DNA from: Candidatus Methanomethylicia archaeon
Lineage (GTDB): Archaea > Thermoproteota > Methanomethylicia > CALHIW01
Direction of reading: 5' to 3'
Assembly (NCBI GenBank): GCA_038845975.1
Contig: JAWBQF010000006.1
Coordinates: forward strand, 1-64,000
Length of the DNA: 64,000 nt
The notes under the pieces are model-generated. The model was not told where the DNA came from. It searched no databases and was given only the letters and a program-made list of their open reading frames with translations. Shown here in pieces: positions 1 through 58,973 of the stretch (the first letter of the stretch is position 1; every line of letters begins with the position of its first letter). A program made the position numbers and the translations under genes.

Positions 1-7
1 TGGATAG

Positions 8-24249: not shown

Positions 24250-24309
24250 GGCTTTGTGAACTTTAGATATGAAAAGTACATGTAATTGATAGCTTAAATT
24301 CACAATGCG
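24250..24309. mobile_element. ~60-bp IS6-derived mini-MITE
   Basis: GGCTTTGTGAACTT...AAATTCACAATGC termini; interior similar to copies at 48978 and 49988. Confidence 0.75.
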
Positions 24310-24654
24310 AATACTTCATAAGTTATCTTTAACAGCTATAATCTTATCAATTCATCTAACACCCCAAGCTCAGCAACTCTCCTAACCACTCCTCCATACT
24401 ACACATACTTATCATCCAAAGAGATTAACTATATTATGGTTTTCAAGCTGCTTACAAACCGCAATCTTAGTTCAATGCATTCTACCAATACAATCTGCCA
24501 ACTTCATTTAAACTATAGCTAACCCGGTAAACATCACATATTATAACTTGGAAGACTCTAACTAATTAATAAATATTAACCATAACTTAAGCATCCAACA
24601 TAATAAGTAAACTTCATTACGAGCTATTACATTCATCTATTTCAATATTGTTAA

Positions 24655-25065
24655 TTAAGATATACTTAAAGCAATTCTCCATAGCTGAAACATCATCAAC
24701 ATTATACCGACAAGTATCGGTACATTAAAAGCTATAAACAGCTTAATAAATAATGAAAGTTGCCCCTCAAGCCTAGCAACTCTCTGCTCAAGACCTGAAA
24801 CCCTCCCTTCAATTCTCTCCATATTCATCCTTGTTGTCTCTCTTAATGCTTCTATGTCTTCCTTTGTTGCTTTTCTTAATGCTTCTATGTCTTCCTTTGT
24901 TGCTATTTCTCTTGATATTGCTATTAGTATTGCTTTACGTAGATCTCTACGTTTAAAAACTTCAGGTATAAGCTCATCTGAAAGTGCTTTACGTAAATCT
25001 TCATCCCTTCTCAATTCCTCAAGAAGCTGTCTACCAACAGACATATAAAACATATTACCATACAA
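24655..25065 (-). CDS. Coiled-coil protein with 11-aa ATKEDIEALRx repeats and C-terminal TM (DUF1640/Bdr-like)
   Basis: 33-bp tandem repeat around 24841-24905; hydrophobic C-terminus; likely start at MSVG (25044). Confidence 0.8.
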   Translation of the reverse strand: MYGNMFYMSVGRQLLEELRRDEDLRKALSDELIPEVFKRRDLRKAILIAISREIATKEDIEALRKATKEDIEALRETTRMNMERIEGRVSGLEQRVARLEGQLSLFIKLFIAFNVPILVGIMLMMFQLWRIALSIS

Positions 25066-25253
25066 GTATATAAGCTTAGCTTAACTACAGATTTAAATAA
25101 CTTTAAGATCAAATCTTAACTGTAATGCTCTCTTCATAGAGTAAATTATTCCATTAGTGTTAACTCTTAATAACCCTATTTAGAACCTAATATATTAGTA
25201 ATGTTTAAAAGTAATATTTTCAAGAATGCTTCAAGATTATAGTAGAATTTAAG

Positions 25254-26330
25254 CTATAGTATTCTTGCAGCCTCCTCCATTAACGGATCTAGAAATCTAT
25301 TCTGCTCATCTATTATTGAGTGTTTTCTAAGTGTATGTAGGATGTCGTAGAGAACTCTATCACTTTGAATTTTCCCCTCTAGATTTTCCAGTTTTGTCTT
25401 AAGCATACTCCAATTCCTTACTCCCTGTGAAAGTAGTTTCAGAACTGCTTTATACCTCCTCCTACTTACTCTATAGTTTAGGAAGTTTTCCAATTCATGC
25501 TTTGCTAGTTGAACAGCTTCCCTCCAGATTTCTTCAAGATTCCTGCTATGCATTATCCTTAAGTATCCATAGTAGGTAAGCCATCCTATAATACCATCCA
25601 GTCTACTAACTACCTCCTCAATCTCACTTTCACTAACTCTACATCCTGCCTCCTCAAATCCTCTCAGTAGGAAATCTACTACCTCCTCTCTTGTTAACCT
25701 TCTAGTTTTAACCTCTAAGTAAGCTCTACCGTAAAGGGGGGCTTCAGGATCTTTAAAGAAGCGGTATAGAACCCCCATTTCAGAGCCAGACACTATGAAG
25801 GAGAGATTCCTTAAATGATCGTATGAGTAGGCAATAACATTCTGTAGCATGATGGAAGCATGTCCAAAAGCCTTCTGAAACTCATCGAAAACTATAATAA
25901 TCTTCATATCTTCCTCCTCACCAACCTCATTTAAAGCTGTAAAGACCTCACTTAGTAGTGGTCTACTATCCCCCCAGGAAAGCTCAATTGTAACTCCTGA
26001 TATTGATACTCCCCTAACAAGCTTAAGAAATTTAACTACTCTCTCATAAAGTCTTCTTTGCCTTGAAGTTCTAGAGAGGAAATTTGTAAGTTCATGGGAG
26101 ATGAGACTATATAGTTCCCTCCTAGACTTCATCACAGTTCTTAAATCAAAGAACACATATGGAGTACTAGATTCTTCAAGAGCGGTTAGGATAAGAGAAG
26201 TCTTACCAGTTCTCCTCAACCCAGTAACAACTACAAGAGGCTGCCCAATATATCTTCTAAGCATATTAAGCTCCTCCTCGAAGTCGTATAGGTCCTTCCT
26301 GTTTTTCTTCGGTTCTGGATTAAACAACAA
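25254..26330 (-). CDS. Archaeal P-loop ATPase (COG1672-like) with C-terminal wHTH
   Basis: LFNPEPK..LYDFEEE, GLRRTGKTS, DEFQ, SGSEMG, PLYGR, GIIGWL. Confidence 0.92.
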   Translation of the reverse strand: MLFNPEPKKNRKDLYDFEEELNMLRRYIGQPLVVVTGLRRTGKTSLILTALEESSTPYVFFDLRTVMKSRRELYSLISHELTNFLSRTSRQRRLYERVVKFLKLVRGVSISGVTIELSWGDSRPLLSEVFTALNEVGEEEDMKIIIVFDEFQKAFGHASIMLQNVIAYSYDHLRNLSFIVSGSEMGVLYRFFKDPEAPLYGRAYLEVKTRRLTREEVVDFLLRGFEEAGCRVSESEIEEVVSRLDGIIGWLTYYGYLRIMHSRNLEEIWREAVQLAKHELENFLNYRVSRRRYKAVLKLLSQGVRNWSMLKTKLENLEGKIQSDRVLYDILHTLRKHSIIDEQNRFLDPLMEEAARIL

Positions 26331-26397
26331 CTTTCACACCGAAATTAACTTTCACACTGAAAGTTATAAATTTTGCTATTCCCCATCCCTTAAAGCT

Positions 26398-27092
26398 TCA
26401 TAAATCATGTTGGAGGCAACAGCTGCTAAAACTACTGACATTAGCCTACCACCTAATAATACCCGTTCCTACCTATTATGGTAACAATATCGTTTGAATA
26501 TCTTAAAACCATGTATACCATTAATGCTGCTATTAATCCCCTATAAGAACGTCAATTAGGCTTTGAGTATTTGTTAATACTATTAGCGTAGTCATTGTTC
26601 CAGGACCTACAAGAAGCGGGGTTGCTAGGGGAACTATTGCTATCTGATCGGTATCTACGGTTTTCGTTCTTACAGTTCCCCTAACATATCTATTGCTAAA
26701 ACCATTAATAACACTCCACCTGCAAGCTTAAAGCTCTCAATAGTTATTCCTAATAGGCTAAGTATTAACTGTCCAAGCAATGTGAAGGAGAATATTAATG
26801 CTACAACTACAGTTACGATTGTGTTTACTAGTTTCCTCCATTCAGCTATTGGCAGCTCACCAGTATATGTTAAGAATAATGGTAATGCACTTAGAGGATT
26901 TATTATTGCGAAAAGCTGAAGTGAAATGTTAGCTGCCTGTAAAGGGTTAAAATATATAATCTCATATATTCCCTTAGCTGTCACCCTAGTATAGGCTAAA
27001 ACCAAAATAGCTAAAATAACTGTAGCTATTGAGAGTTTAAAGATTCTTTTATGCTTACCACTAACCAATTGATCTAAAATGTTTCTATACAT
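26398..27092 (-). pseudogene. marC: MarC-family membrane protein, frameshifted
   Basis: FAIINPL..FKLAGGVLL in ORF; IAIVPLATPLLVGPG continues in another frame below 26670. Confidence 0.8.
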
Positions 27093-27205
27093 CCTCTTCT
27101 CATGTATATTTTAAACATATAACTAAACTAATATATAGTTTGTTTCCTAGATTGATACGGATAGATAACTACACATACCACTATGAAGCTATAACATTTT
27201 AATAA

Positions 27206-28119: not shown

Positions 28120-28617
28120 TATTGCATTATTCTCTCCATTAATTCTAACCTCTAACTATATAATGTTTTAATTAATATTCTGCATGATGCTTATAGTATT
28201 GAGCTCCATCACTCAATACAACTATATTAGAACCATAGACAGCTCTAATCTTCTAAGGAATATAGGATGTAAGCATATTTGCAACATCACAAACCCATAT
28301 GTAGAGAATCCTCCTCAATAATGGCTCAAACACAACATAAATAACCTCCTCTTAAAACCTACTTATAATAGTATCATCAACCATAATCCTAGCATCCCTC
28401 CCATCAATAGAAGCTTAAGATAAACCACGATAATATAGAATAACTCCTAACAACAATAAACTAAATATCCGAAGCCATTCTAGAAGAACGAAAATATATA
28501 AGTAATAAACAACTAGAGTAAATGGAGTTCTCTCCCTAATAAACCTAACAACTTTAACCATAGATTCACCGTAAACAAGGAAGAGAACTCCCAAATAAAT
28601 CTAAAGTTAACAAAGCC
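28120..28617 (-). mobile_element. Truncated IS6-family element (degenerate transposase)
   Basis: Left TIR GGCTTTGTTAACTTTAG at 28617; minus-strand fragments FIRERTP, VDDTII, LRRILYIWVCDVAN, SDGAQYY, MERIMQ. Confidence 0.8.
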
Positions 28618-29509
28618 TAGTGAATATGAGAAAAATATTAAAGACTTAATTAAACTTCCTGAAAAGGAAAGAGAGATGAGGATGCATCCACCAAGAGATA
28701 AGAGAAGACTTATCAGATTTCCAGTTTTCGCTATACCATGGGAGATAGATGAAGTAATAGAGGCGCTTGAAAAGGGGCGCTCAGAAAACCCTAAACTTAA
28801 TAGTATCATTAATAGGATGGATTCAGGAACACGTAGACTACTGGTTAGAATTTTAAGAAATGCTAGGGAAATCAGGTAAAAACTAGTAAACCTAATATAA
28901 GCATAGTATACATCCATAATTATTTCTAGACTATTTAAGTTCTGTAGTCATTATTTCTGCATAGACCATCAACTTCCTTAATTTTTGAACTTAACACCAT
29001 ACCGATACATGACTTGTATTAACAATCCGGTAAACATAAGCGATATCTCTTTAGCTAAGCTCAGCCATGTAGAGAATGCATGTCTTCAACTTCTTTTAAG
29101 CGAAACCTTATTACGCCTGAATATCCCTTTACCTTTAAGGGCTTTGAGAAGCTATCTACAAAATCACTTCAAGTGATGGATTCCAAAGCCTCTCAAAAAT
29201 CTAAAAGTAACAGTATCACGGATCATTCTCTACAAAAGTTCTAGTTTTACAGAAAATAATGCTTGATACAGTTTCTATTTAGAGTATCCTGCTCAATAGA
29301 TTTAAATTTTAACATTTTCCAAATTCTAAAAACCGGAATTTCCTCCCTCTACCAAATTTATCACGTACATATTGCAACAGTAAAAGCGGGATGAATATGT
29401 TAAACAAAAGATATTCTGTACTTATTCAGATCCTCAGGAAGCGAAATTCTATTTAAGCTGAGAAAATAGGTTTAAATGCTGCGGAATAGTTATTATTTAA
29501 GGGAAATCT

Positions 29510-30530: not shown

Positions 30531-30583
30531 GGTACCACCAGCAACTGGTACTACTACCAGTAGTTTTAAACGTAAAGTTTAAA

Positions 30584-30720
30584 ACTTGAGTTAACTTAAA
30601 CATGTTTTATCACCTCTATTTTGTTATTGCTTCCATGAATTCCTAGCTTTTATCTTCTTATTAATCTATGCTCGTTTAACTATACTATTGAAAGATTGAT
30701 ACATGTTCACCATCATATTT
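30584..30720 (-). mobile_element. Right-end remnant of an IS6-family element
   Basis: AACTTAAACATGTTTTATCACCTCTATTTT..CATGAATTC is reverse-complement similar to 58914-58965. Confidence 0.6.
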
Positions 30721-30772
30721 ATTTTTAACTACGAAATTCTTATTAGGAATCTAGGAATTAATAATATAGACT

Positions 30773-32339: not shown

Positions 32340-32460
32340 GGCTATGTAGACTTAAGCATGCTTACTACCTCTACTTCAGATTTTCTATGAATTCCTATTT
32401 TCATCTTCTTATATATGCTTGTTAGCCATACTATTGATTTTACTGTATTATGTAGTCATA
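32340..32460 (-). mobile_element. Right-end remnant of an IS6-family element
   Basis: GGCTATGTAGACTTAAGCATGC..CTATGAATTC resembles the reverse complement of 45989-46048. Confidence 0.6.
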
Positions 32461-34439: not shown

Positions 34440-34498
34440 AACTATGTAAACTTAGTATTAATAGATATGTATAGTTAACGGTTTAAATATACATAGCT
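34440..34498. mobile_element. IS6-derived mini-MITE
   Basis: AACTATGTAAACTT...AAATATACATAGCT inverted ends; size and interior like the other copies. Confidence 0.6.
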
Positions 34499-36391: not shown

Positions 36392-36392
36392 A

Positions 36393-45309: not shown

Positions 45310-45554
45310 TCCAATACTTAACCAAGTTAATAACTATTAATATTCTACTTTACGGCATGAAAACCACTAGATGCTTTAAATCCTATTAACTTATTTAGGA
45401 TATATCTACCTACTATATTAATATGATTAGTCGTTTAGATTCTTAGAAGGTAAAATACTGGGAAATTTGTAATAATACGAAGTGTAATTAAAACTTAAAG
45501 TAAATCCATAATACCTTTACTAATACTAACTATGTAACTCCTATAATTGTGGAG

Positions 45555-46048
45555 AACCCTGTGAACTTTATCTTTATTCGGAAATTTACGGTGAACCTAT
45601 AGCTAAAGTTATTAGGTTTATAGGAGATAACCTCATCTACTTTAGTTGTTTATAGATTATATATTTTCATTCATATATAATGGCTTCAGATACTCTAAGC
45701 TTTATTGTAGAGATCTATATTATGTTTATCTTAGTTGCGAATATGCTTACATCACTAACATTAAATGATTAAAGCTATCTACAGCTAATATAATTGTATT
45801 AAGTAGTTCATTACTATAAAGCATCATGTAAAATATTGAATTTAAACATGAATGGTTTAGAAGTTAGAATCTAGTGGAGAGAGTAATTGTTATTATTTAT
45901 ATATTATGCGTGAAGGATAAGCGTAATGGTAAGCATGAATCCATGATCATGAAGTCAATAGCATATCTGAAATAGAAAATAAAACTAAGAATTCACAGAA
46001 ATACAACATCAAAATAAAGGTAATAGGCATGCTTAAGTTCATAAATCC
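45555..46048 (+). mobile_element. Decayed IS6-family element
   Basis: Colinear similarity to 58191-58973 and to 28120-28617(-); ends CTGTGAACTTTA / TAAGTTCATAAATCC. Confidence 0.75.
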
Positions 46049-46089
46049 ATAGGATGACGAGTAATAGACTTAAAAAGATGCTTAGATGA

Positions 46090-46821
46090 TTAAGTAAGGT
46101 CTTTCTCTTGGGGTTTTGTAGTTCTTAGCATTACTTTAAACATTTCTTGAGCATTGTGAAGCATATTGTGGTTATTGTTAAAATATATGTAGGCTTTATG
46201 TGGGTTTAAAGCCGTGATTTTACTAGCTATGTTTTCAATTTCTTCAATACTGTAATTGTACGAGTACCATGTAAGTCCTCTACCGTGAAGTCTAAGATAT
46301 AATATACCGTTAGTATTAAATATTGCCTCTAAGATTTCAGGACTATCTATAGAAGCCATTGTTACATTAAGCTTTCTACACCAATCAATCCATTCATCAC
46401 TAAACCATTTTAAATTTCTAAACTCAATAGCAAACCTCCAATTCAAATTAGCTTTACTTATAAATGATTCAATTCTCCTCACATATTTATCTATCGGTAA
46501 TACTTGAGGAGGAAGCTGGAAGAGATAGAAATCTATATGGTCGTCAAGAGGCTTAAAAAGATTGTAAAATCTATCCCATACATTATAGGCTTTCTCACTG
46601 AATCTATATACGTGAGTTATAAATTTATTCACCTTAATACTCCATCTAAAACCTCTACGTGTTAAGCGGCTCCATAAGGCAACCTGAGATCGGAATGGGA
46701 AACGGTAAAATGATGCATTCAATTCAACACTATTCAGATTTGAATTCTCAATATACCACTTAAAGTCACCACCGAGGTTCCAGTCATACATCCATCCAGA
46801 TGTACCAACATAAACCTCCAT
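46090..46821 (-). CDS. DUF72 family protein
   Basis: VGTSGW, VELNASFY, FQLPP, YLRLHG, YFNN. Confidence 0.92.
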   Translation of the reverse strand: MEVYVGTSGWMYDWNLGGDFKWYIENSNLNSVELNASFYRFPFRSQVALWSRLTRRGFRWSIKVNKFITHVYRFSEKAYNVWDRFYNLFKPLDDHIDFYLFQLPPQVLPIDKYVRRIESFISKANLNWRFAIEFRNLKWFSDEWIDWCRKLNVTMASIDSPEILEAIFNTNGILYLRLHGRGLTWYSYNYSIEEIENIASKITALNPHKAYIYFNNNHNMLHNAQEMFKVMLRTTKPQEKDLT

Positions 46822-46971
46822 AATCCTACTACCAGAAATAATATCTAAACACTGCTTAAACCTTACGTTTCTAATTGTCTATGAATCTATCTCCATACAA
46901 ACAATGAAGAAGCTTTCTAGCCAATTAGAAAGTAAACAGTCAACAATAAGTATAATGTATGCTACTACATG

Positions 46972-47028
46972 TACTCTATAAACTTTAGATAGAATCATAT
47001 ATAGCTAATGGCTTAAGTTCACAAAACT
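46972..47028. mobile_element. IS6-derived mini-MITE
   Basis: CTCTATAAACTTTAGAT...GGCTTAAGTTCACAAAACT. Confidence 0.65.
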
Positions 47029-47494
47029 CTTAGAAATGAATTTAAAAGATTTTAAAGTGTAGGTAACTGTTAAGCCTAATGCTTGATACTTATTGTTCTT
47101 GTTAAGTCATATATTAGTATAGATTTCTAAAACTTCGTAAATAAAGATTCAACTATTCCAATAATCTATATTATCACTATAGCTAATATGTAGAGTCTAC
47201 TCATAACGATGCTAATAGTTAAATCTATAAATGAAATAAATACTAGAATCAACCTAATTAACATTATGAAGAATGAAATTGAAAATATGAATAATACCTA
47301 ACATATTCTTAATGGGGATTTATTTGGAAGATTATTCTATGATTTTAATCATTAATTACTTAATATCTAAGATTTATAGAGGTTTAAGATCTTTAATAAG
47401 CTTATAAGACATAGAGTTTGCTATATTGGGATCGATAAGTTCGGAGAATTGAGTCTATGAATTGTAGTTTTCAGATAGTATTTATGGAAAAGGA

Positions 47495-48931
47495 TTATTC
47501 GTATGGTTTTTCAAATGGTTTAACATCGTGGGGTGCTATTTCATTCATACCGGCATGTGATATTAGAGCAACTCTAGCTTTCAATTTCATTTCAGCTATG
47601 TTTGCTGCTCCTACATATCCGAATGCTGTTTTAAGTCCAGCTATAAATCTATCTAGTATAGTGGTTACGTCGCCTCTATATGGTACAAGGCTTTCTATTC
47701 CTTCAGCTATGTCTTTTGATGGTTTACTATATCTATCAAGCGTGAATCTTTTCAGTCTTGCTGATGGGCTTCCCATTCCTCTATATATCTTGTAGATTTT
47801 ACCTCCTATCATCATGGTTGATCCAGGTGTCTCTTTAGTTCCAGCTAGAGCATAGCCAAGCATTACAGCATCAGCCCCCATAGCAAATGCCTTTGCAGCT
47901 TCTCCAGGTCCTCTTATACCTCCATCAGCTATTATAGCTACCTTACTTGAATATTTCTTTATTGCCTCATATGTTTTCGCTACAGCGTAGAGGGTTGGTG
48001 CTGCTACTCCAGTAACTTCACCGGTAGTACATATACTTCCACTTCCTATACCTACTCTAAGCCCTATAATATCAAGCCTACAAATAGCTTCCTCTGCAGC
48101 TTCATAGGTTCCTATGTTTCCAGCAATAACAGGAATATTTACTTCAGCTATTAATTTCTTAGTAGCGTTTATTACGTTTTCATTGTGGAAGTGGGCTACA
48201 TCAATAACAAGAACATCCACATACGGTGCTAACGCTACCGCTCTATTAATATCGAATGGAGAGACTGCAGCACCAACTCTAAGTCTTCCCTCACTATCTC
48301 TTGCTGCAAAGGGATGTAGCTCCCTATGGAAAACATCCTTTGCAGTAATAAGCCCTACCAACTCTCCAAATTCATTTATAACTGGAAGCTTCTCAATCTT
48401 ATATCTAGCCATTATTTTCCTAGCTTCTTGAGGAGTTATTTCAGGTCCTACAGTAATCGGATCCTTCGTCATTACTTCCTTAACTGAAAGATTACTATTC
48501 TCAGCAAAGTAGATATCTCTCCTAGTTACTATTCCTACTAGCCTCCTACTAACAACTACTGGAAGCCCTGAGATTCCATACTCCCTCATTAACCTTCTAG
48601 CTTCCTCCACACTATCTTCAGGAGAAACGGTTATTACATCTCTTATTATAAAGGATTCTACCCTCTTAACAGTCTTCACCATTTTAACCTGCTCCTCAAC
48701 TGTACAGTTTCTATGAATAACTCCTAAACCCCCCATTCTAGCCATCGCTATCGCCATCTCCTCTTCAGTTACGGTATCCATAGGGGAAGATAGTATTGGA
48801 GTGGTAAGTACTATGCTTCCTATTCTTGTTGTTAAATCAATGTTTGAAGGCTCAACTTCAGTTTTACCTGGTAGGAGTATTACATCGTTAAATGTAAATG
48901 CAAAATCCATTTTATTAAAGCCTACATCCAT
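47495..48931 (-). CDS. guaB: IMP dehydrogenase with CBS pair
   Basis: TFNDV, SSPMDTVT, GIGSGSICTT, ADGGI, YRGMGS. Confidence 0.96.
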   Translation of the reverse strand: MDVGFNKMDFAFTFNDVILLPGKTEVEPSNIDLTTRIGSIVLTTPILSSPMDTVTEEEMAIAMARMGGLGVIHRNCTVEEQVKMVKTVKRVESFIIRDVITVSPEDSVEEARRLMREYGISGLPVVVSRRLVGIVTRRDIYFAENSNLSVKEVMTKDPITVGPEITPQEARKIMARYKIEKLPVINEFGELVGLITAKDVFHRELHPFAARDSEGRLRVGAAVSPFDINRAVALAPYVDVLVIDVAHFHNENVINATKKLIAEVNIPVIAGNIGTYEAAEEAICRLDIIGLRVGIGSGSICTTGEVTGVAAPTLYAVAKTYEAIKKYSSKVAIIADGGIRGPGEAAKAFAMGADAVMLGYALAGTKETPGSTMMIGGKIYKIYRGMGSPSARLKRFTLDRYSKPSKDIAEGIESLVPYRGDVTTILDRFIAGLKTAFGYVGAANIAEMKLKARVALISHAGMNEIAPHDVKPFEKPYE

Positions 48932-48977
48932 ATTGAAAATGATTTTACAGTCTAATAAACCTTACTAACTTAATACT

Positions 48978-49033
48978 TGCTATGTGAACCTTAGATGTGA
49001 AGTATATGTAGTTGATGGTTAATTCATGAAGAT
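48978..49033. mobile_element. IS6-derived mini-MITE
   Basis: GCTATGTGAACCTTAGATGTGAAGTATATGTAGTTGATGGTTAATTCATGAAG aligns with the 24250 copy. Confidence 0.7.
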
Positions 49034-49987
49034 AATTAACAATTAAAGAAGATTCAGTATTTTAAAGCCGGCATCAATTTAAACCTTTAATTGAAATCTG
49101 ATGGAATATGGTTAAAGATGATATATACTTAAGTTCATAAATCCTAATTCTTATCGTAAACTTAAATAATCAAATACTTCTACATAAGTTCAAATAGCCT
49201 TAATACTGGCTATAAGCTGTTTAAGCTTAGTATAATGTGTTCTTGAATGTTACTAAATGGTTCAAGTCTTAACTCTAGGTCTACTATATGTTCTCCTACT
49301 AACTCGGATGTTTAATAAGATGTGCTCTTACTATACTGATAGTTTAAAATTTAGAGGAGCTTAACAATATATAGGAAAAATTCTACTACTAAATTATTAA
49401 TTAATAGGAGATGTTCCGTAACGATTTGAAGTAAGAATATTTCATATTGGAGCATTATGTGTAGGCGGTGAGGGATAGATACTTTACAGTAGTTGTTTCC
49501 TCCACTCTTCTAGTTTTCCTTTTTCTCAGCTATGTTCTTATAAACTCCTATATTTCATGTCTATTATATGGATTGAATTCTATAAATATAAGAATTTTAA
49601 GACACCTATTGATGAAATAATTTCTATTTTTAAGAAGCTAGAATATTCTTCATATTCTCGGAATCATGGACAATATCTTAATGCCTAAATTTAATATGAA
49701 TTATACATCATCTATTTAAACTTTTTGAAGTTTAGAAAGTTTAATCTTTTAAGGCTTCTTGAAGAGCTTAATATTTCTATATTGAAGCAATACTTAAAGA
49801 AGTAAAGCATTACAGTTAATGGTTATTACTCTATATGAATGTTTTCTTTTACTGTAAATCTAATAACTTTAGCTATATCGTCACAATAAGTAAGGGAAGT
49901 TCTTAACAAAGCTCATAGGGCAAGGATTTTGGACGTGGTAACTCAGCATATTGTAGCTTCTTCTTAATTTGCTAGATTCAGGATTTT

Positions 49988-50046
49988 GACTCTGTAAACT
50001 TTAGATATGGGAAGTAAATGTAATTGATAGTTTAAGCTCACAAGGT
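49988..50046. mobile_element. IS6-derived mini-MITE with flanking GGATTTT direct repeat
   Basis: Aligns with the 24250 copy; GGATTTT at 49981-49987 and 50047-50053. Confidence 0.75.
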
Positions 50047-50100
50047 GGATTTTAGCCGTAAAATTTATATGTTGGAGGGGAAATATTGCTGGTTTTAGCT

Positions 50101-50988
50101 ATGGTGATTAAGTTAGAAGGCATTATGCCCCCAATACCAACTCCATTTACTTCTACTGGAGATTTTGATGAGGGAAAGTTTAGAAATCTGATTAAATGGT
50201 ATATTAATATTGGTGTTCATGGTATTGCGATTTGTGGAAGTACTGGTGAAGGCTACGCTATTCTACCTGATGAGTATGTAAGGATATGTGAAGTAGCTGT
50301 AAGCGAGGTTAAAGGTAGAGTACCTGTAATTGCTGGTATTATAGTTAATTCCCTTAAGCAAGCATTAGTATACGGTGAAGTAGCTAAGAGTAAGGGCGTT
50401 GATGCTTTAATGGTAACACCTCCACACTACATCTTCATCCCAAATGAAGAGGGGCTTTACCAGTACTTTAAGACAATAGCGGAAACACTTAACATGCCAC
50501 TAATAATCTACAATGTAGTACCTCATGTACCAGTTCCATTAAATGTGGTTTTAAGACTTACCAATACAGTAAAGCAGCTAGTTGGAATTAAGCAGAGTAG
50601 AGGAGATATTAGTGGTCTTGCTGATTTAGTTAAGGCTGTAGGGGATAAGGTATCAATAATGTCTGCAATAGACGACTTATTATATCCATCATTCATACTT
50701 GGCGCTAAAGGATCTATTGCTGGAATATGTACAGCAGCACCAGACTTATCCATTGATCTATATTATGCGGTGAAAAGAGGAGACCATATGGAAGCGCTTG
50801 AAATACATGGTAAACTACTAGCAATATGGAGAGCTATTGGTCAGCAGGATATGCCTGCAAGAGTAAAAGCATTACTAGAATTAAGAGGAATACCAGCGGG
50901 ATATCCTAGAAAACCAATACTACCGCTATCTGAAAGTGTTAGGGAAGAATTAAGAAAAGTACTAATTAATACAGGTATACTAAAATAA
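50101..50988 (+). CDS. DHDPS/NAL-family class I aldolase
   Basis: GSTGE, PPHY, IYNV, GIKQS. Confidence 0.92.
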   Translation: MVIKLEGIMPPIPTPFTSTGDFDEGKFRNLIKWYINIGVHGIAICGSTGEGYAILPDEYVRICEVAVSEVKGRVPVIAGIIVNSLKQALVYGEVAKSKGVDALMVTPPHYIFIPNEEGLYQYFKTIAETLNMPLIIYNVVPHVPVPLNVVLRLTNTVKQLVGIKQSRGDISGLADLVKAVGDKVSIMSAIDDLLYPSFILGAKGSIAGICTAAPDLSIDLYYAVKRGDHMEALEIHGKLLAIWRAIGQQDMPARVKALLELRGIPAGYPRKPILPLSESVREELRKVLINTGILK

Positions 50989-51278
50989 TGCTTCATTAAT
51001 TTATTATCGTAGATAATAGATTAGTGTAGCATAAGGTACTTCATATATTTAAATCTTAATATTCTAAGCAAGTTTATGAAGGCTTACTCTATAGACTTCA
51101 TGAATTTAGGGTATACTACCTCTTAACAATAGGATACTAATAGAGTTCTAATTAATGGTTATGTTTAGTTAGAGTTTTCATAAATCATTATTATCTAAAT
51201 TCTCCACTATTCAGTCATAAGGGAAAGTCTATGTTAACTCTTTCCACTGATGGAGTTTATGGCTTCTAATCTGTTAGC

Positions 51279-51327
51279 GGTCTTGTGGACTTTACTTATA
51301 TAGCTGATGGTTCAAGTTCACGGAGCA
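51279..51327. mobile_element. IS6-derived mini-MITE
   Basis: GGTCTTGTGGACTT...ATAGCTGATGGTTCAAGTTCACGGAGC. Confidence 0.65.
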
Positions 51328-51380
51328 ATGCTATTTAGCAAAAAACTTATAATTATGTTTTTAGAATTATCTTGATCTAG

Positions 51381-52664
51381 ATGAGTTCAAGGATAAGTAG
51401 GGTTAGGGGAAGAGAGATTTTAGATTCAAGAGGGAATCCAACTGTAGAGGCTGAGGTTATATTGGAAAGTGGAGATGTAGGTGTAGCATCCGTACCCTCA
51501 GGAGCATCTACGGGGAAGTTTGAGGCTTTCGAATTAAGAGATGGGGATAAGAAGAGGTTTAATGGAAGAGGAGTATTAATCGCGGTTAGAAACATTAATA
51601 ATGTTATTTCAAAGGCTTTAATTGGAAGAGATTCATTAAATCAGGAGGAAATCGATAAGGTAATGATAGAGCTTGATGGAACGGAGCGGAAGGAGAAGCT
51701 TGGAGGAAATGCAATTCTAGCAGTTTCTCTCGCTAACATAAAGGCAGCTGCAATATATAGGAGGATACCACTATATAGATATATTGAGGATAGGGAAGAA
51801 TATATTATACCTGTCCCCCTAATGAATATAATAAACGGTGGAAAACATGCAGGAAATAAGCTTTCCATACAGGAGTTTATGATAATTCCATATGGGGTTG
51901 AAAACTTCATGGAGGCTTTAAGGCTAGGTGTTGAAACATACTACAAGCTTAAATCCATACTTAAGGATAAGTACGGCTCCTCAGCAGTTAATGTAGGTGA
52001 TGAAGGTGGATTTACACCACAAATAGATAATACGAGAGAAGCATTATCATTACTAGTTGAGGCTATTAATGCTTCAGGATATACTGAGAAGGAAATAGCA
52101 TTAGGGATTGATGCTGCAGCATCATCATTCTACGATGATGAAAACCATAAGTATAGAATAGATGGATTAATGTTAACAGGAAATGAGCTTATTGACTACT
52201 ACTCTATGTTAATTAATGAATTCCCCATAGTTTCCGTAGAGGATCCATTCCATGAGGAGGATTATGATAGCTTCAAAGAATTTACTGAAAAATTTAGAAA
52301 TAAGATTCAGATAGTTGGTGATGATATATTTGTAACAAATAAGAAAAGACTTGAAATCGGTATAGAGAAAGGTATTGCTAATACTCTCTTATTTAAGGTA
52401 AATCAAATCGGTACTGTAACAGAAGCTTTTGAAACAATGAAGATAGCTATAATGAACAATTATAGAGTAATTGTAAGTCATAGATCTGGAGAAACTGAGG
52501 ATAACTATATAGCTGATATAGCTGTCGGTAAAAGTGTTGGGCAAATAAAGACTGGAGCCCCATGTAGAGGGGAGAGAATAGCTAAATACAATAGATTAAT
52601 TAGGATAAATGAGGAGCTTGAAGATAAGGCTAAATATATTGGAAGAAAATTATTCAATCCCTAA
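51381..52664 (+). CDS. eno: Enolase
   Basis: REILDSRGNPTVE, PSGASTG, GDEGG, SHRSGET, KYNRL. Confidence 0.98.
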   Translation: MSSRISRVRGREILDSRGNPTVEAEVILESGDVGVASVPSGASTGKFEAFELRDGDKKRFNGRGVLIAVRNINNVISKALIGRDSLNQEEIDKVMIELDGTERKEKLGGNAILAVSLANIKAAAIYRRIPLYRYIEDREEYIIPVPLMNIINGGKHAGNKLSIQEFMIIPYGVENFMEALRLGVETYYKLKSILKDKYGSSAVNVGDEGGFTPQIDNTREALSLLVEAINASGYTEKEIALGIDAAASSFYDDENHKYRIDGLMLTGNELIDYYSMLINEFPIVSVEDPFHEEDYDSFKEFTEKFRNKIQIVGDDIFVTNKKRLEIGIEKGIANTLLFKVNQIGTVTEAFETMKIAIMNNYRVIVSHRSGETEDNYIADIAVGKSVGQIKTGAPCRGERIAKYNRLIRINEELEDKAKYIGRKLFNP

Positions 52665-52769
52665 CTAATAATTAAACTTCAATACAGGATTACTTCTTAG
52701 TAGAAAGCTTATTATTTATCCATCTATTGTTGCTTATTAGATTCCAGAATGAATTATAAAGCATGGCTT

Positions 52770-53334
52770 TACTCTAGGTTTACTCATTTAATTATGACAA
52801 GAGTCGTTAAGCTTGTTAGAAAGGAATCATCTACTCTAATTGTTATCTTACATATTTTCATTCATCTAAGACAACTTCAGATATTCTAAGCTTATTACTG
52901 TAAAGATGTAAATTTTAGATATTTAAGCTTCTTGAATCTAATAGAGGAAGACCGGATTTGATTTTAATGATGCCATTACTAGATTCTAAAGATAAGTATT
53001 TTGCTTTAAGTCTTATTAAGGAAGATAATTTACATATGAATTTAGTTGCAAATACACTATTATCCCTATAAATTAACATAACTCTGTATTAATTAATGGA
53101 GTGTTATAGAGTTAATGTAAAATACTGATTAGAAACATATAGTTTAGAATTAGAAATTTGGAGTTAAATAGTATTAAGGATAAATTAAACTCTTAACAAT
53201 TACATGATGATGAGAACGTAATTATGAATAGTATTGCTAAACGGAATATGAATTAATGAAAAGATAAATGTTAAGTATCATGGAGAAACAATACTTAAAT
53301 AGAGATGATAAGATACGCCTAAGTTCACGAGACA
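52770..53334 (+). mobile_element. Decayed IS6-family element with 8-bp TSD CATGGCTT
   Basis: CATGGCTT at 52762-52769 and 53335-53342; interior similar to the 58191 copy. Confidence 0.75.
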
Positions 53335-53418
53335 CATGGCTTGAAAGTTAGATTTATATAGGTAGCTAATTGACATCTAGCAGTTTATAGCTTAGAATAC
53401 TTCTTTACAGGTGGAAGC

Positions 53419-54843
53419 TTGTCTATTAAACCGCTTATAGAGCCGGAGAGCGTAGCAGTAGTTGGAGCATCCAGGAATCCTGCAAAGCTTGGAGCTATAG
53501 TACTTAGAAACCTGATTAATTTAGGTTTTAACGGCCGTATCTATCCAGTTAATCCGAATGCTAATGAGATCATGGGCTTAAAAGCATACCCCTCCGTTAA
53601 GAGTATTCCTGATAATGTTGATTTAGCAGTTATAGTGGTTCCAGCTCCGCAAGTTCTAGATGTTGTAAGGGATTGTGTTGAGAAGAAGGTTAAGGGAATC
53701 GTTATTATTTCATCGGGATTTAAAGATATTGGGGATAAGGGTGCGGTTATTGAGGAACAAATTGTTGAATTAGCTAGGAAGGCTGGAATCCGAATATTTG
53801 GACCTAACACAACAGGTCTCCTTAACACTTCTAAGAAGCTTGCAACAACCTTTGTTCCATTATTTGAGTTGAGGAAGGGTAATGTATCAATTATTGCTCA
53901 AACAGGCTTATTTGCTGGAGCTATGCTTGAATGGCTTGCAACATCTCAAAAGTTTGGAGTTAGTAAGGTTATTGGTTTAGGTAATAAATGTGATGTTGAT
54001 GATGCTGAGGCTTTAGAGTATCTAGGCATTGATCCTGAGACACATGTTATCTTAATGTATGTCGAAGGAGTTAAGGATGGGAGAAGATTTATTGAGGCTG
54101 CACGGCAAGTTGTAGGAAGGAAACCTATTATAATTCTGAAATCTGGACGAACAGAAGCAGGTGCAAAAGCAGCATTAACACATACAGGCTCTTTAACTGG
54201 AAGTAGTCAAATATTCAATGCTGTATGTAGACAGTTAGGATTGATTCAAGTATTAAGCTTTGAGGAGATGGTTGATCTTGCTAAAGCCTTTACCTTTCTA
54301 CCACTACCTAGAGGAAATAGAGTTGCTATTGCATCCATTACAGGTGCAGGATCAGTACTAGCTGCCGACTCATGTATTGAACATGGACTTACTATAGCTC
54401 AGCTATCAAATAAATCAATTGAAATAATTCAATCTCATTTACCACCATGGAGTAAGGCGTCTCATCCAATAGATCTTGAGCCTCTCGTTGAGAACATGAA
54501 TAAAGCAATTGAAGCTTATAGGTTAGCTTTAAATACAGCATTAAGTGATGGAAACGTTGACTCCATGCTAGCAGTTCTACTTGCATCTCACGAATACTGG
54601 AGAGATTCAAAGTTCTGGGTTGATGAGGAAGAGTTAAGAAAAACATTTATAGAGCTTAAAAGAACATATTCTGAAAAACCTCTAGTAATACATTTAATGG
54701 GTGGGAAACCAGCTGTTGATCGATGGACTGAAATTCTTGAGGAAACCGGAATCCCTGTATACTCATCAATAGAGCGAGGAATAAAAGCATTAGCTACACT
54801 AGCTAGCTATGCTAAAACTAAAGTAGCATATACAGTACAGTAA
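53419..54843 (+). CDS. Acyl-CoA synthetase (NDP-forming), alpha subunit
   Basis: VAVVGASR, YPVNP, GPNTTG, KSGRT..THTGSL. Confidence 0.92.
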   Translation: MSIKPLIEPESVAVVGASRNPAKLGAIVLRNLINLGFNGRIYPVNPNANEIMGLKAYPSVKSIPDNVDLAVIVVPAPQVLDVVRDCVEKKVKGIVIISSGFKDIGDKGAVIEEQIVELARKAGIRIFGPNTTGLLNTSKKLATTFVPLFELRKGNVSIIAQTGLFAGAMLEWLATSQKFGVSKVIGLGNKCDVDDAEALEYLGIDPETHVILMYVEGVKDGRRFIEAARQVVGRKPIIILKSGRTEAGAKAALTHTGSLTGSSQIFNAVCRQLGLIQVLSFEEMVDLAKAFTFLPLPRGNRVAIASITGAGSVLAADSCIEHGLTIAQLSNKSIEIIQSHLPPWSKASHPIDLEPLVENMNKAIEAYRLALNTALSDGNVDSMLAVLLASHEYWRDSKFWVDEEELRKTFIELKRTYSEKPLVIHLMGGKPAVDRWTEILEETGIPVYSSIERGIKALATLASYAKTKVAYTVQ

Positions 54844-54899
54844 TAGTATCTATGGAATCTAATAATTCATTATTGAGATGTTGAATTACTTGATTAGGA

Positions 54900-55892
54900 T
54901 TACATATTCAGATTGTTAAGCCTGTACTTCATTACTATTTCTTTTAGGGTTTCAAGTGTTATGTTTCCACCACTAAGAATTAAAGCTACCTTCATGTTTC
55001 TAATTTGGTTTTTCAGTTTTAAAGCTGCAGCTGTTGAAGCTGCTCCTGCCCCTTCAGCTAGTTGATGTGTTACTTCAAGTAATAGGAGAATTGCCTTAGC
55101 TATCTCCTCATCACTTACAAGAACCATATTGTCGAGAAGCCTCCACATAATGTCTAATGTTAGCTCAAACGGTGCTCTTGTAGCTAGTCCTTCAGCAAAT
55201 GTATTTATTGATTCTGTTGTAGTTATTTTCTTATTTCTCCATGAGAGATATACTGCCGGAGCACCTTCAGCCTGTACTCCAATAACTTTTATTTTAGGAT
55301 TTATTGTTTTAGCTACAATACAAGCCGCTGAAGCTCCGCTTCCCCCACCTACAGGGCATATTATAGCATCTACATCTGGAAGATCTTCAAGAACTTCCAG
55401 ATATAGTGTTCCAACACCTGAAATTAAATAAGGTTCATTTCCTGAATGTATGTAGCAGTAGCCCTGCCTAATAGCTTCCCTCTCAGTCCATTCTTTAGCC
55501 TCATCAAAGTCCCTACCATGAAATACTACTTCAGCTCCAAGATCTCTTATGGCTTGAGCCTTAAACGGATTTGCCTTCTCAGGCATAACTATTACTGCTT
55601 TAGCATTAAATATTGATGCCGCATAAGCTATGGATAATCCATGATTCCCAGTTGAAACAGCTATAACTCCCCTTCTTAATTCATTAGGTGAAAGCTTTGA
55701 AATTACGTTTACTCCTCCCCTAACCTTAAATGCACCTGTAACCTGTATGTTCTCGCATTTAATATATGCTTCACATCCTAGAATTCTAGAGAGCTGTCTT
55801 GAATATATTAATGGCGTCCTCCTAATATGTTTAGAAACTATTTTTCTAGCTTCCAATACATCACGTAGTGATGGATACATATATAACCCCAC
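54900..55892 (-). CDS. Threonine/serine dehydratase (PLP)
   Basis: KCENIQVTGAFKVRG, STGNHG, PVGGGSG, SGGN. Confidence 0.93.
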   Translation of the reverse strand: MGLYMYPSLRDVLEARKIVSKHIRRTPLIYSRQLSRILGCEAYIKCENIQVTGAFKVRGGVNVISKLSPNELRRGVIAVSTGNHGLSIAYAASIFNAKAVIVMPEKANPFKAQAIRDLGAEVVFHGRDFDEAKEWTEREAIRQGYCYIHSGNEPYLISGVGTLYLEVLEDLPDVDAIICPVGGGSGASAACIVAKTINPKIKVIGVQAEGAPAVYLSWRNKKITTTESINTFAEGLATRAPFELTLDIMWRLLDNMVLVSDEEIAKAILLLLEVTHQLAEGAGAASTAAALKLKNQIRNMKVALILSGGNITLETLKEIVMKYRLNNLNM

Positions 55893-57121
55893 TAAAGTAG
55901 AGGTATAAGTGTAAATACTATAGCATCAGCAACTATGTTCTCTATTTTTGTATATTCGTTTGGCTGATGAGCAAGCTCATCAATAGTACTCCATACAGCT
56001 GCATGTATACCTCTTCTTCTGAATAATGCAGCAACTGTTCCCCCACCTATCCCTATGGTTTTAGGCTTTATCCCTCTTGAAAGCTCTATAGCCTCTCTAA
56101 GTCTAGAAACAACTTCACTATCCTCAGGTGTTGGTGGTGGAGAATCAATCCTTAAAACAGCTTCAACATCTATTCTTACACCATACCTTCCCTCAAACTC
56201 AGCTTTTAACATGTTAACATCCTTTAAAACCATATCTACATCATATCTTGGAAGTATACGGCAGTCAAAATATATAGTATCAATTCCTGGAATTGTATTT
56301 ATATTTTGTACGTTAAGATCTTTTCTTGTAGGTTCAAACGTTGATTCTTGAGGAGTAAATATAGAGTCTTTATCAACGTATTTTTCATGGAGGTATTCAT
56401 CAATTCTTAAAGCATACATCATTCCAATTCTATGGGCATTCAATCCCTTATGAGGTGTACTTCCATGGGTTTGCTTACCGTAAGTAGTTATTTTAAGCCA
56501 TAATACGCTTTTTTCAGCTATCTCTATTTTCGATCCATTACGAGACCCTGAATCCGGAACTATAATTAAGTCTTCAGGCTTGAAGAATCCCATATCTAAT
56601 AAGTATTTCAATCCATAATGGCTTCCAGCCTCCTCGTCAGATACAAATACAGCACCAAAATTGAATTTAGGCTTAACCTTTAGCATTTTTAATATTTTTA
56701 AAGCCATCATGGATGAAGCTATTGCTTGACCATTATCTTCAGCTCCCCTAGCATATATTTTCCCATCCTTAACTACAGGTTTAAACGGATCAGTACTCCA
56801 AAGCCTTAAGTCTCCCTCCGGAACAGTATCAAGATGTGAGACAATCCAAATACTTCTAGAAGTATTATCTCCCTTAATAACTCCAATAATGTTAGGTCTT
56901 AAACCCTCAGGAACTCTACTATCATGAACATTAATACATTCCAAAACATCAAGACCATAACTACTAAGAATTCTATATAGAGTTTCACCACGCTTAAACT
57001 CTCCCTCACCACCCATAGATGGATTTACTGCTTTAATACTTAAAACATTAAGGAAATCGTTAATAACAGAATCCCTAAGCATATCAGCATATTCTCTAAC
57101 AATGTTTAACAATTCACTCAT
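55892..57121 (-). CDS. M20 family metallopeptidase/deacylase
   Basis: SHLDTVP, RGAEDNG, DEEAGS, HGSTPH, AHQPNEY. Confidence 0.93.
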   Translation of the reverse strand: MSELLNIVREYADMLRDSVINDFLNVLSIKAVNPSMGGEGEFKRGETLYRILSSYGLDVLECINVHDSRVPEGLRPNIIGVIKGDNTSRSIWIVSHLDTVPEGDLRLWSTDPFKPVVKDGKIYARGAEDNGQAIASSMMALKILKMLKVKPKFNFGAVFVSDEEAGSHYGLKYLLDMGFFKPEDLIIVPDSGSRNGSKIEIAEKSVLWLKITTYGKQTHGSTPHKGLNAHRIGMMYALRIDEYLHEKYVDKDSIFTPQESTFEPTRKDLNVQNINTIPGIDTIYFDCRILPRYDVDMVLKDVNMLKAEFEGRYGVRIDVEAVLRIDSPPPTPEDSEVVSRLREAIELSRGIKPKTIGIGGGTVAALFRRRGIHAAVWSTIDELAHQPNEYTKIENIVADAIVFTLIPLL

Positions 57122-57557
57122 AACAACACCTATAATAGAAGTAAATAAATCTAGTGTTAAATAGCTAGATAGCTGCTTGATAAACTATATTTACTATGCT
57201 TACAACTTAATTCTTAATCTGTATAGGGGGAAATATTAATAATTATTCTTGTAGGAAATACTCCATAATTCTCCGTTAGTATTTAGCTCTGGATAAACAT
57301 TAGCTATGAGGAAATTGGAAGATTTGATGAAAGTATAAATAAGTAAATTACTAGGAGCAGTTTACTATAGATTAACTTGTAGATAAGCTTCTAATTCTTA
57401 AAGACTTGTAGTCATCTATAAATATGTAAAGTCAAGTTAAGGAATCTTATAGCTGTAAAAAAGTATTCTAAGCTTATTTAAGATATTTAGTCAAAGAGAA
57501 ATCTTCTACAAGATATTTATTGAAAAAGCTTAAATATGAGATTAAGAATTCTACTTT

Positions 57558-57800
57558 ATGGCTGAAGCATTCATACTTATAAATACTGAGATAGGAGCTG
57601 AAGAGGAAGTTTTAAAGAAGCTTAAAAGCATTGATGGAGTTAAAGAAACATGCATGGTTTACGGTGTTTACGATATTATAGCTAAGATAGAAGCTGAAGA
57701 TCTTGATAAGCTTAAAGATATTGTAACGTGGAGAATTAGAAGACTTGACAAGGTTAGAAGTACAATTACAATGATTGTTGCATCAAGAAGAAAACCCTAA
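57558..57800 (+). CDS. Stand-alone Lrp/AsnC ligand-binding (RAM) domain protein
   Basis: AFILIN..VYGVYDIIAK..IRRLDKVRSTITMI. Confidence 0.9.
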   Translation: MAEAFILINTEIGAEEEVLKKLKSIDGVKETCMVYGVYDIIAKIEAEDLDKLKDIVTWRIRRLDKVRSTITMIVASRRKP

Positions 57801-57847
57801 CAATTACTAGAATTCCTCCAGTAGGAATCTATATTCTACTTAGTAAA

Positions 57848-58138
57848 TTATGCTTTAGATATTTTTCCATATTTACCTACATTAACCTGAATTTTTCCTC
57901 GAAACGTTGTTGTATATCCATTACTAATAACTACAGTATCCCCTACTGAGAAACGATTAATCTGCTCGTTCCAAAGACTTAGCTGAATAGTTCCAGTTTC
58001 ATCCTGTACCGTGGCGTCAGCAACCCTAGCAGAACCAAACCTTGTACTTACATTTCTAGGCTCTGAAACCTCTATAATCTTTACTTTAAGATTTACATTT
58101 CTCATTCCCGGTTTTAAATCAGAAATTTTCAAATACAA
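57848..58138 (-). CDS. ssb: Single OB-fold single-stranded DNA-binding protein (crenarchaeal type)
   Basis: KISDLKPGM.NVN, DETGTIQLSLW, NVGKYGKI. Confidence 0.9.
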   Translation of the reverse strand: MYLKISDLKPGMRNVNLKVKIIEVSEPRNVSTRFGSARVADATVQDETGTIQLSLWNEQINRFSVGDTVVISNGYTTTFRGKIQVNVGKYGKISKA

Positions 58139-58190
58139 TCACCTCACAATCTATCTCTAACTCTATATATAAAGATTTTGGGTTTGAGGA

Positions 58191-58973
58191 GGCTTTGTTA
58201 ATTTTAGCTTTATTTTGGAGTTTTCTCCCTTATTCATAGTGTTAGTATGGTTAAAGTTACTAGATTTGTTAGAGAGAAGTCCGTTTACTCTAGCTTTATG
58301 GTGCTTATATTTCAGTTCATTTAGAATGGCTTCAGATATTCTAAGCTTACTACTGTAGAGATCTATATCGTCATGATTTAGATATTAAGCTTCTATTGAG
58401 TTTGGTTGTTATGTTTGATGATACTATTATAAGTTAGGTTCTATGAGGGAGATTGTTATGTTAATGAGTCATTATTGAGGAGGATTCTATGCATTGTTTG
58501 TGATTTTGTAAATATACTTATATCACTAACATTCCCAGCTTTGTGGCTTAATATTCATTTCTCGTAATCTATATCATTAAATACTATGGTTATAGGAATG
58601 CTTATTAAGCTTTTCGTACTTTATGTAAACTTGAATTTGCAAAATTTCGGAATTAAGCCACAAAGCAACATTCCCTAGAAAAATAAAGACTATATATAGT
58701 TCTAATATAATTTATTTAGCGATGGAGCTCATTATAATAGCATGTAAATATGAATTTAAACATGGTACAGTTTAGAATTAATTGAGAGAATCATAAGTTA
58801 AATAGATAAATTATTTAATAATCATATCATGCATTAGGAAAGTGTTATAGTGTAATGTATTACTAAAATCAATAATATAGCTAAAACATGGATTAATAGA
58901 GGTTAAAGTCAAAGAATTCATATAAGATACAATATAAAATAGAGATAATAAACATGCTTAAATTCACAAAGCC
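58191..58973 (+). mobile_element. Decayed IS6-family element with 8-bp TSD TTTGAGGA
   Basis: TIRs GGCTTTGTTAATTT / AAATTCACAAAGCC; TTTGAGGA at 58183-58190 and 58974-58981; transposase relic (FDDTII, SDGAHY). Confidence 0.88.
58537..58667. mobile_element. 131-bp MITE nested in the IS6 relic, 8-bp TSD ACATTCCC
   Basis: Perfect 15-bp TIR GCTTTGTGGCTTAAT / ATTAAGCCACAAAGC; ACATTCCC at 58529-58536 and 58668-58675. Confidence 0.9.

Follow-up and report, generated by a model that had tools for sequence, protein, structure and literature searches.

Insertion sequence (IS) elements of the IS6 type end at a fixed position upstream of core promoters in the genome of Candidatus Methanomethylicia archaeon (GCA_038845975.1), a 2.77 Mb assembly in 76 contigs from a hot spring. 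The window, i.e. the whole stretch of DNA analysed here, comprises 64,000 nucleotides of that genome (contig JAWBQF010000006.1, positions 1-64,000). An initial annotation of the window had noted IS6-type elements at a near-constant distance from neighbouring start codons and proposed that transposition is directed to promoters. The genome-wide analysis supports this proposal, and, measured from the archaeal core promoter, which is made up of the TFB recognition element and the TATA box (BRE/TATA), the position proved constant to the nucleotide. The offset is fixed, is independent of spacer length, is restricted to IS6-type elements and recurs in other genomes. We place the probability that the IS6-family transposition machinery chooses its targets by reference to promoters at roughly 0.93. 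Across hundreds of ends, three lineages and two archaeal classes, the landing site keeps a single-nucleotide register with the core promoter.

Element ends and core promoters

The reference copy of the main IS (contig C8:87771-88500) is 730 bp long and carries the terminal inverted repeat (TIR) GGCTTTGTKAACTTWAG at both ends, the TIRs being abutted by an 8-bp target duplication. A regular expression for the TIR, allowing up to 3 substitutions, gave a catalogue of 426 ends genome-wide, which includes chance matches (some of the unclassified ends) and very old relics. By their inner sequence, 122 were left ends, 122 were right ends, 75 belonged to MITEs (miniature transposable elements with inverted repeats) and 107 were unclassified. 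Genes were called with a simple home-made dicodon model (2429 genes, 72% coding), and the start codons were likewise home-made. A BRE/TATA matrix was then learned by expectation-maximisation from the 70 nt upstream of 905 well-scored genes lying more than 300 nt from any IS copy and with no gene nearby. The resulting 12-16-nt motif is the expected archaeal core promoter, AAAR-TTTATATA (AAAR-TTTAWAWA). It begins 33-32 nt before the start codon, as in leaderless genes, with a second mode at 44-39 nt. The first 12 columns of the matrix were scanned over the 100 nt outside each of the 426 ends; the thresholds differ among the counts given below and are 5, 6 or 8 bits.

At 8 bits or more, the motif starts at offset 15 from 94 of the 426 ends. 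Offsets 14, 16, 13 and 17 account for 9, 6, 6 and 5 ends respectively, every other offset for 0-3, and the motif is always oriented away from the element. Pooling offsets 14-16 gives 109/426 ends, compared with 0-7 (mean 2.3) for other three-offset windows (binomial P ~2e-145). The flanks of these 109 ends fall into 109 separate similarity clusters and so represent independent loci, and flank columns outside the motif hold almost no information. At such loci the element lies on the BRE side only, ending 14 nt upstream of the BRE/TATA core, and the duplicated 8 bp take up offsets 1-8. The flanking motifs cannot be told apart from ordinary promoters, even at three extended-BRE positions not covered by the matrix, and neither the duplication nor the spacer displayed a further motif specific to the transposase.

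Random positions seldom display this arrangement. The motif was found at offsets 14-16 from 50/20000 random genome positions and from 93/20000 (0.5%) random intergenic positions outside IS copies. Virtual ends placed 40-60 nt upstream of start codons had it in 1337/23730 cases (5.6%). The 25.6% observed for element ends is 55 times the random intergenic rate and 4.6 times the virtual-end rate, and is thus far from the uniform intergenic distribution that the initial annotation had set against its own proposal. Viewed from the promoters, 36/215 intergenic BRE/TATA sites of at least 11 bits have an IS6-type end 14-16 nt upstream, which is a very high promoter occupancy for a prokaryote.

The youngest copies, which the initial annotation had singled out, display the same pattern. 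Among IS-size copies whose duplication has at most one mismatch (n = 25), the motif (at least 6 bits) lies at the offset in 21, on one side in 19 and on both in 2, with neither side positive in the remaining 4. For IS-size copies without a duplication (n = 39) the corresponding numbers are 19, 11 and 9. A closer inspection of the 27 duplication-bearing elements of any size that have a motif on one side reveals that the promoter side faces a gene start in 24, at a median gap of 55 nt. On the far side of these elements the next gene lies a median of 278 nt away, and 18/23 have at least 130 nt. This free spacer means that there was room elsewhere; short intergenic regions combined with selection, which the initial annotation had named as a possible cause of the clustering, are therefore not the explanation. 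Both ends of the IS are used equally, with 41/122 left ends and 39/122 right ends facing a promoter.

The near-constant gap between element and start codon also held across the genome. Of 215 start-facing classified ends, 82 lie 40-60 nt from a predicted start, with modes at 46-48 and 54-58 nt, compared with 7/97 stop-facing ends at that distance from a gene. In a check that made no use of gene calls, 82/109 ends had a start codon opening at least 60 codons at a distance of 36-120 nt. Peaks of 27 ends at 46-48 nt and of 20 ends at 54-58 nt match both promoter-to-start modes of ordinary genes.

The element, other lineages and other genomes

Approximately 120 copies of the main IS are present in the assembly. 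A blastn search with the reference copy gave 231 high-scoring segment pairs (HSPs) in the assembly, 52 of them full length, and identity to the reference was 86-92% among the HSPs listed. The reference copy is spanned by a single reading frame, broken into three pieces, in which D, D and E motifs are present. The transposase gene is broken in every copy of the assembly and no intact transposase was found in any, the longest frame being 110 aa. Thirty-three contig ends break inside an IS and the assembly holds no contig below 5 kb, so young identical or active copies may be unassembled.

A Pfam search of the three broken transposase pieces returned 0 families. The 109-aa N-terminal piece had 57 matches among 1.84 billion representative proteins. 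Eight of these were near full length (194-233 aa), PF13610 (DDE_Tnp_IS240) was found in 6/8, in 5 of them above the curated cut-off, and the alignment of the homologues displays the D, D and E motifs. TIRs of IS6 elements begin with GG. Size, single gene, TIRs, 8-bp duplication and PF13610 in intact homologues together support the IS6-family assignment made in the initial annotation. The 730 bp of the element compare with 700-890 bp in the available parts of two IS6/IS26 papers, which also describe a single transposase gene read from a left-end promoter, short TIRs and an 8-bp duplication (PMC7986276, PMC6807381). The DDE_Tnp_IS240 domain of the intact homologues is a further likeness. Among 56 IS-size end pairs, 18 have a perfect 8-bp duplication and 3 one with a single mismatch. 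In 32/56 pairs the two 8-bp flanks differ at 4 or more positions, as exchange between copies would give; that many copies are without a duplication is as might be expected of the cointegrate-forming IS6 family.

The MITE consists of two IS ends in 56-60 bp, i.e. two TIRs and a linker of approximately 25 nt, and has no coding capacity. Pairs of 50-69 bp number 20 genome-wide, 7 of which have a duplication with at most one mismatch. By comparison, the two IS6 MITEs given in the accessible part of the IS6 review are 227 and 336 bp long (PMC7986276). A C/D-box small RNA or other RNA gene was considered as the identity of the 60-bp unit and dropped, there being no C/D boxes by eye; no RNA-family search was run.

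Genome self-comparison revealed other repeat families, three of which were examined for the offset:

IS6-B: GC-rich TIR GGTTCTGTCCGGATAAGA; 21 ends, 8 at offset 15 (at least 5 bits); weak PF13610 hit at C1:162902 (E 2.6e-4, below the cut-off)
F715: TIR GATACTGTTACTTTTAG; 46 ends, of which 10 are at offset 15 and 7 at 16; PF13610 match at C7:63859 (E 3e-10)
F850: TIR GAACTCATTGCAAAAC; 62 ends, no peak; IS4/IS5 family with PF01609 (DDE_Tnp_1) and DUF4096, e.g. C4:46647-47497 and C19:995-1498

F850, of the IS5 family, resides in the same genome under the same selection and has no offset peak; hence the trait goes with IS6-type elements. The gene for TBP (C9:49469-50029) is itself flanked by two elements, an IS6-B copy (48291-49273) on one side and, on the other, a derivative of the main IS that deletion has reduced to 423 bp (50235-50657).

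Outside the host genome the main IS is rare in its class, with any match in 7/62 genomes. Copies in a congeneric genome (62% complete) are approximately 70% identical. Among its 31 unique candidate ends, the motif (at least 5 bits) starts at offsets 14, 15 and 16 in 4, 2 and 2 cases, with no other offset exceeding 1. Relatives were collected with a five-homologue alignment, scanned against a single genome for each species, and 80 loci were kept of 439 relatives; a search for related loci with the single protein P0010 gave no matches. All 80 loci are from Nitrososphaeria or unassigned Thermoproteota records, in about 48 assemblies by accession-prefix count. The Nitrososphaeria relatives are 665-730 bp long with the TIR GGCTCTGTTAACTTAAG. 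With the matrix learned from the Methanomethylicia genome and a threshold of 5 bits, the motif lies at offsets 14-16 from 21/128 of their unique ends, at 20 loci (other windows, mean 1.8; P 2e-16). Here too both ends face promoters (left ends 11/71, right ends 10/57).

Target choice and its explanations

In the mechanism that we propose, the archaeal core promoter would serve as the landmark for choosing the landing site. With the usual 8-bp stagger, strand transfer would place the first A of the BRE/TATA core 14 nt downstream of the element end and the extended BRE 11 nt downstream of it, offsets 1-8 being taken up by the duplicated 8 bp. Promoter and gene would be left intact, with the promoter firing away from the element, so that the cost to the host would be low and copies could accumulate. 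Either end of the element could face the promoter. The transpososome would dock on promoter DNA bent by TFB and TBP, as yeast Ty3 does on TFIIIB. Unlike TIRs in three lineages with a common geometry, and a specificity that is exactly that of TFB plus TBP, make us lean towards the factor-bound promoter, and docking on promoter DNA held and bent by TFB/TBP appears slightly more likely than a reading of naked BRE/TATA. Occupancy of motif sites bears on this step. Among intergenic motif sites of at least 8 bits, an IS6-type end occupies 79/792 promoter-like sites, at which an ORF follows at promoter distance, versus 47/1589 orphan sites (Fisher P 4e-12), and occupancy is higher at promoter-like sites in each score bin below 11 bits (bins 6-10). 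For promoter-anchored insertion with the docking step included, we consider the chances to be about even. The broader claim, that docking on the TFB/TBP-DNA complex guides a whole branch of archaeal IS6-type transposases to promoters, a branch represented here in two classes or more, is tentative and falls somewhat below that.

A number of observations weigh against promoter-anchored insertion or its docking step. Promoter-facing ends are rarer among MITEs (12/75) than among IS ends, about half of all ends are without the motif, and so are 4/25 young copies. In contigs of four hot-spring metagenomes covering window positions 44000-60000 the layout is unchanged and no empty-site allele was found, so the copies examined are old. 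With the transposase broken in all copies, activity is not attributable to a known protein of this genome, and the insertion preference is deduced from survivors. The occupancy difference is gone at 11 bits and above (promoter-like 19/104, orphan 13/78), although many of these 'orphan' sites may be real promoters. Below 11 bits, the gap could derive from promoter features missed by the 12-nt matrix, from unannotated genes or from selection. Contact of the transposase with TFB/TBP is conjectural, and gene calls and start codons were supplied by a simple home-made gene finder. A complex prediction that combined TBP and the TFB core with the N-terminal piece of the transposase scored 0.02 with the fold of the partner uncertain, and counts neither way.

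The transposase might instead recognise the sequence or shape of naked BRE/TATA, which is AT-rich and easily bent, and cut 14 nt away. We regard such direct readout as a serious contender that stops short of an even chance. A fixed offset is equally compatible with a docked complex and with a single protein bound to DNA, and transposases of 194-233 aa leave little room for a docking domain. Occupancy also climbs steeply with motif score at promoter-like and orphan sites alike, and is equal from 11 bits upwards; however, below 11 bits orphan matches are used 2-8 times less than promoter-like ones. The specificity is that of TFB plus TBP, including the extended-BRE positions, with nothing added, and the same geometry is found in lineages with quite different TIRs, among them IS6-B with its GC-rich TIR, and both points weigh against direct readout. 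The transposase may already bind such a sequence, as a BRE/TATA-like motif lies 14 nt inside the terminus at 105/122 left ends and 39/46 F715 ends. However, right ends, IS6-B and the Nitrososphaeria relatives all lack this mirrored inner motif and still target promoters. The idea of a 'pseudo-end', whereby the target promoter mimics the left end of the IS, was rejected as not general on account of the same three groups. The inner motif of the left end is the BRE/TATA-like promoter of the element's own transposase (e.g. window positions 58191-58216 and 28592-28617) and mirrors the target outside.

Random insertion followed by purifying selection would leave survivors only just upstream of promoters where spacers are short. 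The genome is compact in places, and none of the 2427 motif sites within predicted genes carries an insertion, so selection must remove such events. However, a one-nucleotide register, with 94 ends at offset 15, is beyond what selection can set. Virtual ends 40-60 nt upstream of start codons reach 5.6% versus the 25.6% observed, free spacer on the far side amounts to a median of 278 nt, and the IS5-family element of the same genome has no peak in its 62 ends. The register and the IS5-family control together argue that selection alone is insufficient, and this explanation, very improbable in our estimation, is already contradicted. Domestication, in which ends or MITEs are retained as upstream regulatory sites for neighbouring promoters, had been offered in the initial annotation alongside guided transposition. 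Archaeal activators are known to bind upstream of BRE, and contigs of the four metagenome studies carry the window's relics and MITEs as fixed insertions. However, domestication predicts the reverse of the trend seen, the offset being strongest in full-size duplication-bearing copies (21/25) and weakest in MITEs (12/75). Moreover, both ends serve equally despite being unlike beyond the TIR, and three lineages with different ends have the offset in common. The pattern can be accounted for without domestication, given that the IS5-family element, which is unrelated but exposed to the same selection, lacks the offset, and we judge domestication to be highly unlikely. The motif could also have been copied along with its surroundings if the flanks were part of a longer repeat or of duplicated segments, through shared descent or an assembly artefact. 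Duplicated flanks do exist, with 9 multi-member clusters among the 426 ends (e.g. window positions 24241-24320, also found at C20:46993-47064). However, the 109 positive flanks form 109 clusters, their columns outside the motif are nearly free of information, and 8-bp duplications abut the TIR and so fix the boundary of the element. This last explanation is already contradicted and its probability is close to negligible.

The usual view is that IS6 elements have little preference among targets and that the scatter of archaeal transposons reflects chance and selection. In yeast, Ty1, Ty3 and Tf1 integrate at a fixed short distance from a transcription landmark via the transcription machinery, a 'safe haven' that spares genes, and contact with TFIIIB, Pol III or Sap1 has been demonstrated by experiment. 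These are eukaryotic retroelements with integrases, whereas for the elements described here contact with TFB/TBP is only proposed. The closest published case found is that of the conjugative TnGBS transposons together with the groups ISLre2 and ISKra4, bacterial Mutator-like elements which insert upstream of sigma-A promoters and leave them intact; the available text views targeting as a property of the transposase lineage and, on archaea, contains only the speculation that the AT-rich target of ISH6 might favour promoters (PMC3942029). The likeness is that of DDE transposons at a fixed short distance upstream of a housekeeping promoter, and is one of mode rather than membership. Going by that text, the transposase of the TnGBS group is Mutator-like (p-MULT 3/4), whereas PF13610 of the IS6 type is found here, and the landmark is a sigma-A promoter there and the archaeal BRE/TATA here. 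The TnGBS group also inserts mostly in one orientation with the right inverted repeat beside the promoter, whereas the ends described here are used equally (41 versus 39). The accessible portions of the IS6 papers cover hybrid promoters and the targeted conservative mode of IS26, with insertion next to another IS26, and contain no promoter homing; unlike the elements in these descriptions, that analysed here spares the core promoter and lies at a fixed distance upstream of BRE/TATA (PMC7986276, PMC6807381). By term search, the word promoter is absent from a thaumarchaeal mobile-element survey (PMC6563490) and archaea are not treated in an IS-niche preprint (10.1101/2025.07.22.666184). The available part of a P. 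furiosus re-annotation reports antisense starts at IS6 elements and gives no target rule (PMC6640164). A full-text search, with subscription journals outside its scope, found no published report of promoter-homing transposons in archaea.

Promoter-anchored insertion explains how more than 200 IS6-type copies fit in a compact genome, with 10-18% of the strongest promoters occupied and genes not lost. Each insertion separates a promoter from its former upstream DNA, and regulation may therefore be affected. Whether the archaeal pre-initiation complex is readable by a transposase may be asked in this system, which is simple and testable. The elements also provide a means of locating the promoters of uncultured archaea and, possibly, a starting point for tools that insert close to promoters. 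If a branch of archaeal IS6-type transposases does home to promoters by docking, this would be the archaeal counterpart of Ty3-TFIIIB tethering, the upstream edges of promoters would be the main safe harbour for archaeal transposons and the elements would be natural markers of active promoters.

Elements and other features of the window

Every coordinate named in the initial annotation is the terminus of an IS6-type repeat whose TIR is GGCTTTGTKAACTTWAG, intact or degraded. The only complete IS copy within the window is that at 58191-58973. Elements and promoters are as follows, with the strand where one was assigned, scores from the position weight matrix and offsets counted from the element end:

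58191-58973, plus strand: full-length degraded IS copy, 783 bp, left end 58191, right end 58973 (blastn, TIRs at both ends; no open reading frame of at least 50 aa)
58183-58190: left copy of the target duplication TTTGAGGA, right copy at 58974-58981 (perfect 8-bp match)
58166-58177, minus strand: BRE/TATA of the Ssb-like gene (57848-58138, minus strand), 9.2 bits, offset 14 from the IS end
48978-49144: 167-bp internally deleted derivative or MITE, end 48978 facing guaB (TIR search, end pairing)
48952-48963, minus strand: BRE/TATA of guaB/IMPDH (47495-48931, minus strand), 9.8 bits, offset 15
49988-50046: MITE of ~59 bp with two TIRs (TIR search)
50060-50071, plus strand: BRE/TATA of the dihydrodipicolinate synthase (DHDPS)-family gene (ATG 50101), 12.2 bits, 14 nt from the MITE end
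51270-51327: degraded MITE, end 51327 facing the enolase gene (TIR search)
51342-51353, plus strand: BRE/TATA of the enolase gene (51381-52664), 9.4 bits, offset 15 from the MITE end
52793-53334, plus strand: IS relic, right end 53334 (blastn HSP 52793-52944; TIR remnant at 53334)
53349-53360, plus strand: BRE/TATA upstream of the coenzyme A (CoA)-ligase-type gene (53419-54843), 10.5 bits, 15 nt from the relic end
28123-28617, minus strand: truncated IS copy, left end 28617 (83% identity to the reference over 537 columns)
28632-28643, plus strand: weaker BRE/TATA-like motif, 7.0 bits, 14-16 nt from the IS end 28617
24250-24309: 60-bp MITE, neither side of which has a good BRE/TATA at the canonical offset (end pairing, matrix scan)
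30584-30722, minus strand: right-end IS relic (blastn HSP 30590-30722)
~32340-32400, plus strand: short right-end IS relic, inner boundary approximate (TIR search)
34443-34498: degraded MITE, BRE/TATA at offset 11 from 34498, 10.4 bits
40469-40524: degraded MITE, BRE/TATA at offset 13 from 40524, 10.4 bits
45555-46039, plus strand: degraded IS copy with internal loss (blastn HSPs 45584-45706 and 45714-46039)
46972-47028: MITE with no motif at the canonical offset (TIR search, matrix scan)

The genes near these ends, identified with Pfam, are IMPDH/guaB, enolase, an Ssb-like oligonucleotide-binding (OB) protein, a DHDPS-family gene and a CoA-ligase-type gene; guaB, enolase and ssb had already been named correctly in the initial annotation. 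Its claim that the ends lie just upstream of BRE/TATA is borne out at 48978, 50046, 51327, 53334 and 58191 (offset 14-15, 9.2-12.2 bits) but does not extend to 24250 and 32340. An end that it did not list, 28617, has the motif with 7.0 bits. A promoter is present next to 34498, at offset 11 instead of 14-15. Of two further ends described as placed before a promoter or ATPase relic, 40524 has a promoter (offset 13) and 30584 has no good match at the offset. The end at 53334, listed as an exception for its 84 nt to the start codon, is in fact a perfect case of the promoter offset (10.5 bits). In all, the matrix gave no good BRE/TATA match at the canonical offset for ends 24250, 30584, 32340, 45555 and 46972. 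In one of the metagenome contigs, the complete IS copy of the window has a 143-nt internal deletion (window positions 58536-58680), with 3 letters in place of the lost sequence.

Window positions 1-960 contain a CRISPR array with 15 repeats (GAATCTCAAATAAAGAGAATTGAAAG) and spacers of ~40 nt, which extends past the start of the window. A degenerate CRISPR repeat is present at 19016-19037. Direct repeats of 114-279 nt, 75-94% identical, are found beside the array (1217-2019) and 17.6 kb away (19250-19363). Two inverted-repeat arms (18235-18339 and 22734-22837), of 51 and 42 nt and 81-88% complementary, lie ~4.4 kb apart and may represent either the termini of a further mobile element or a gene segment that was duplicated.

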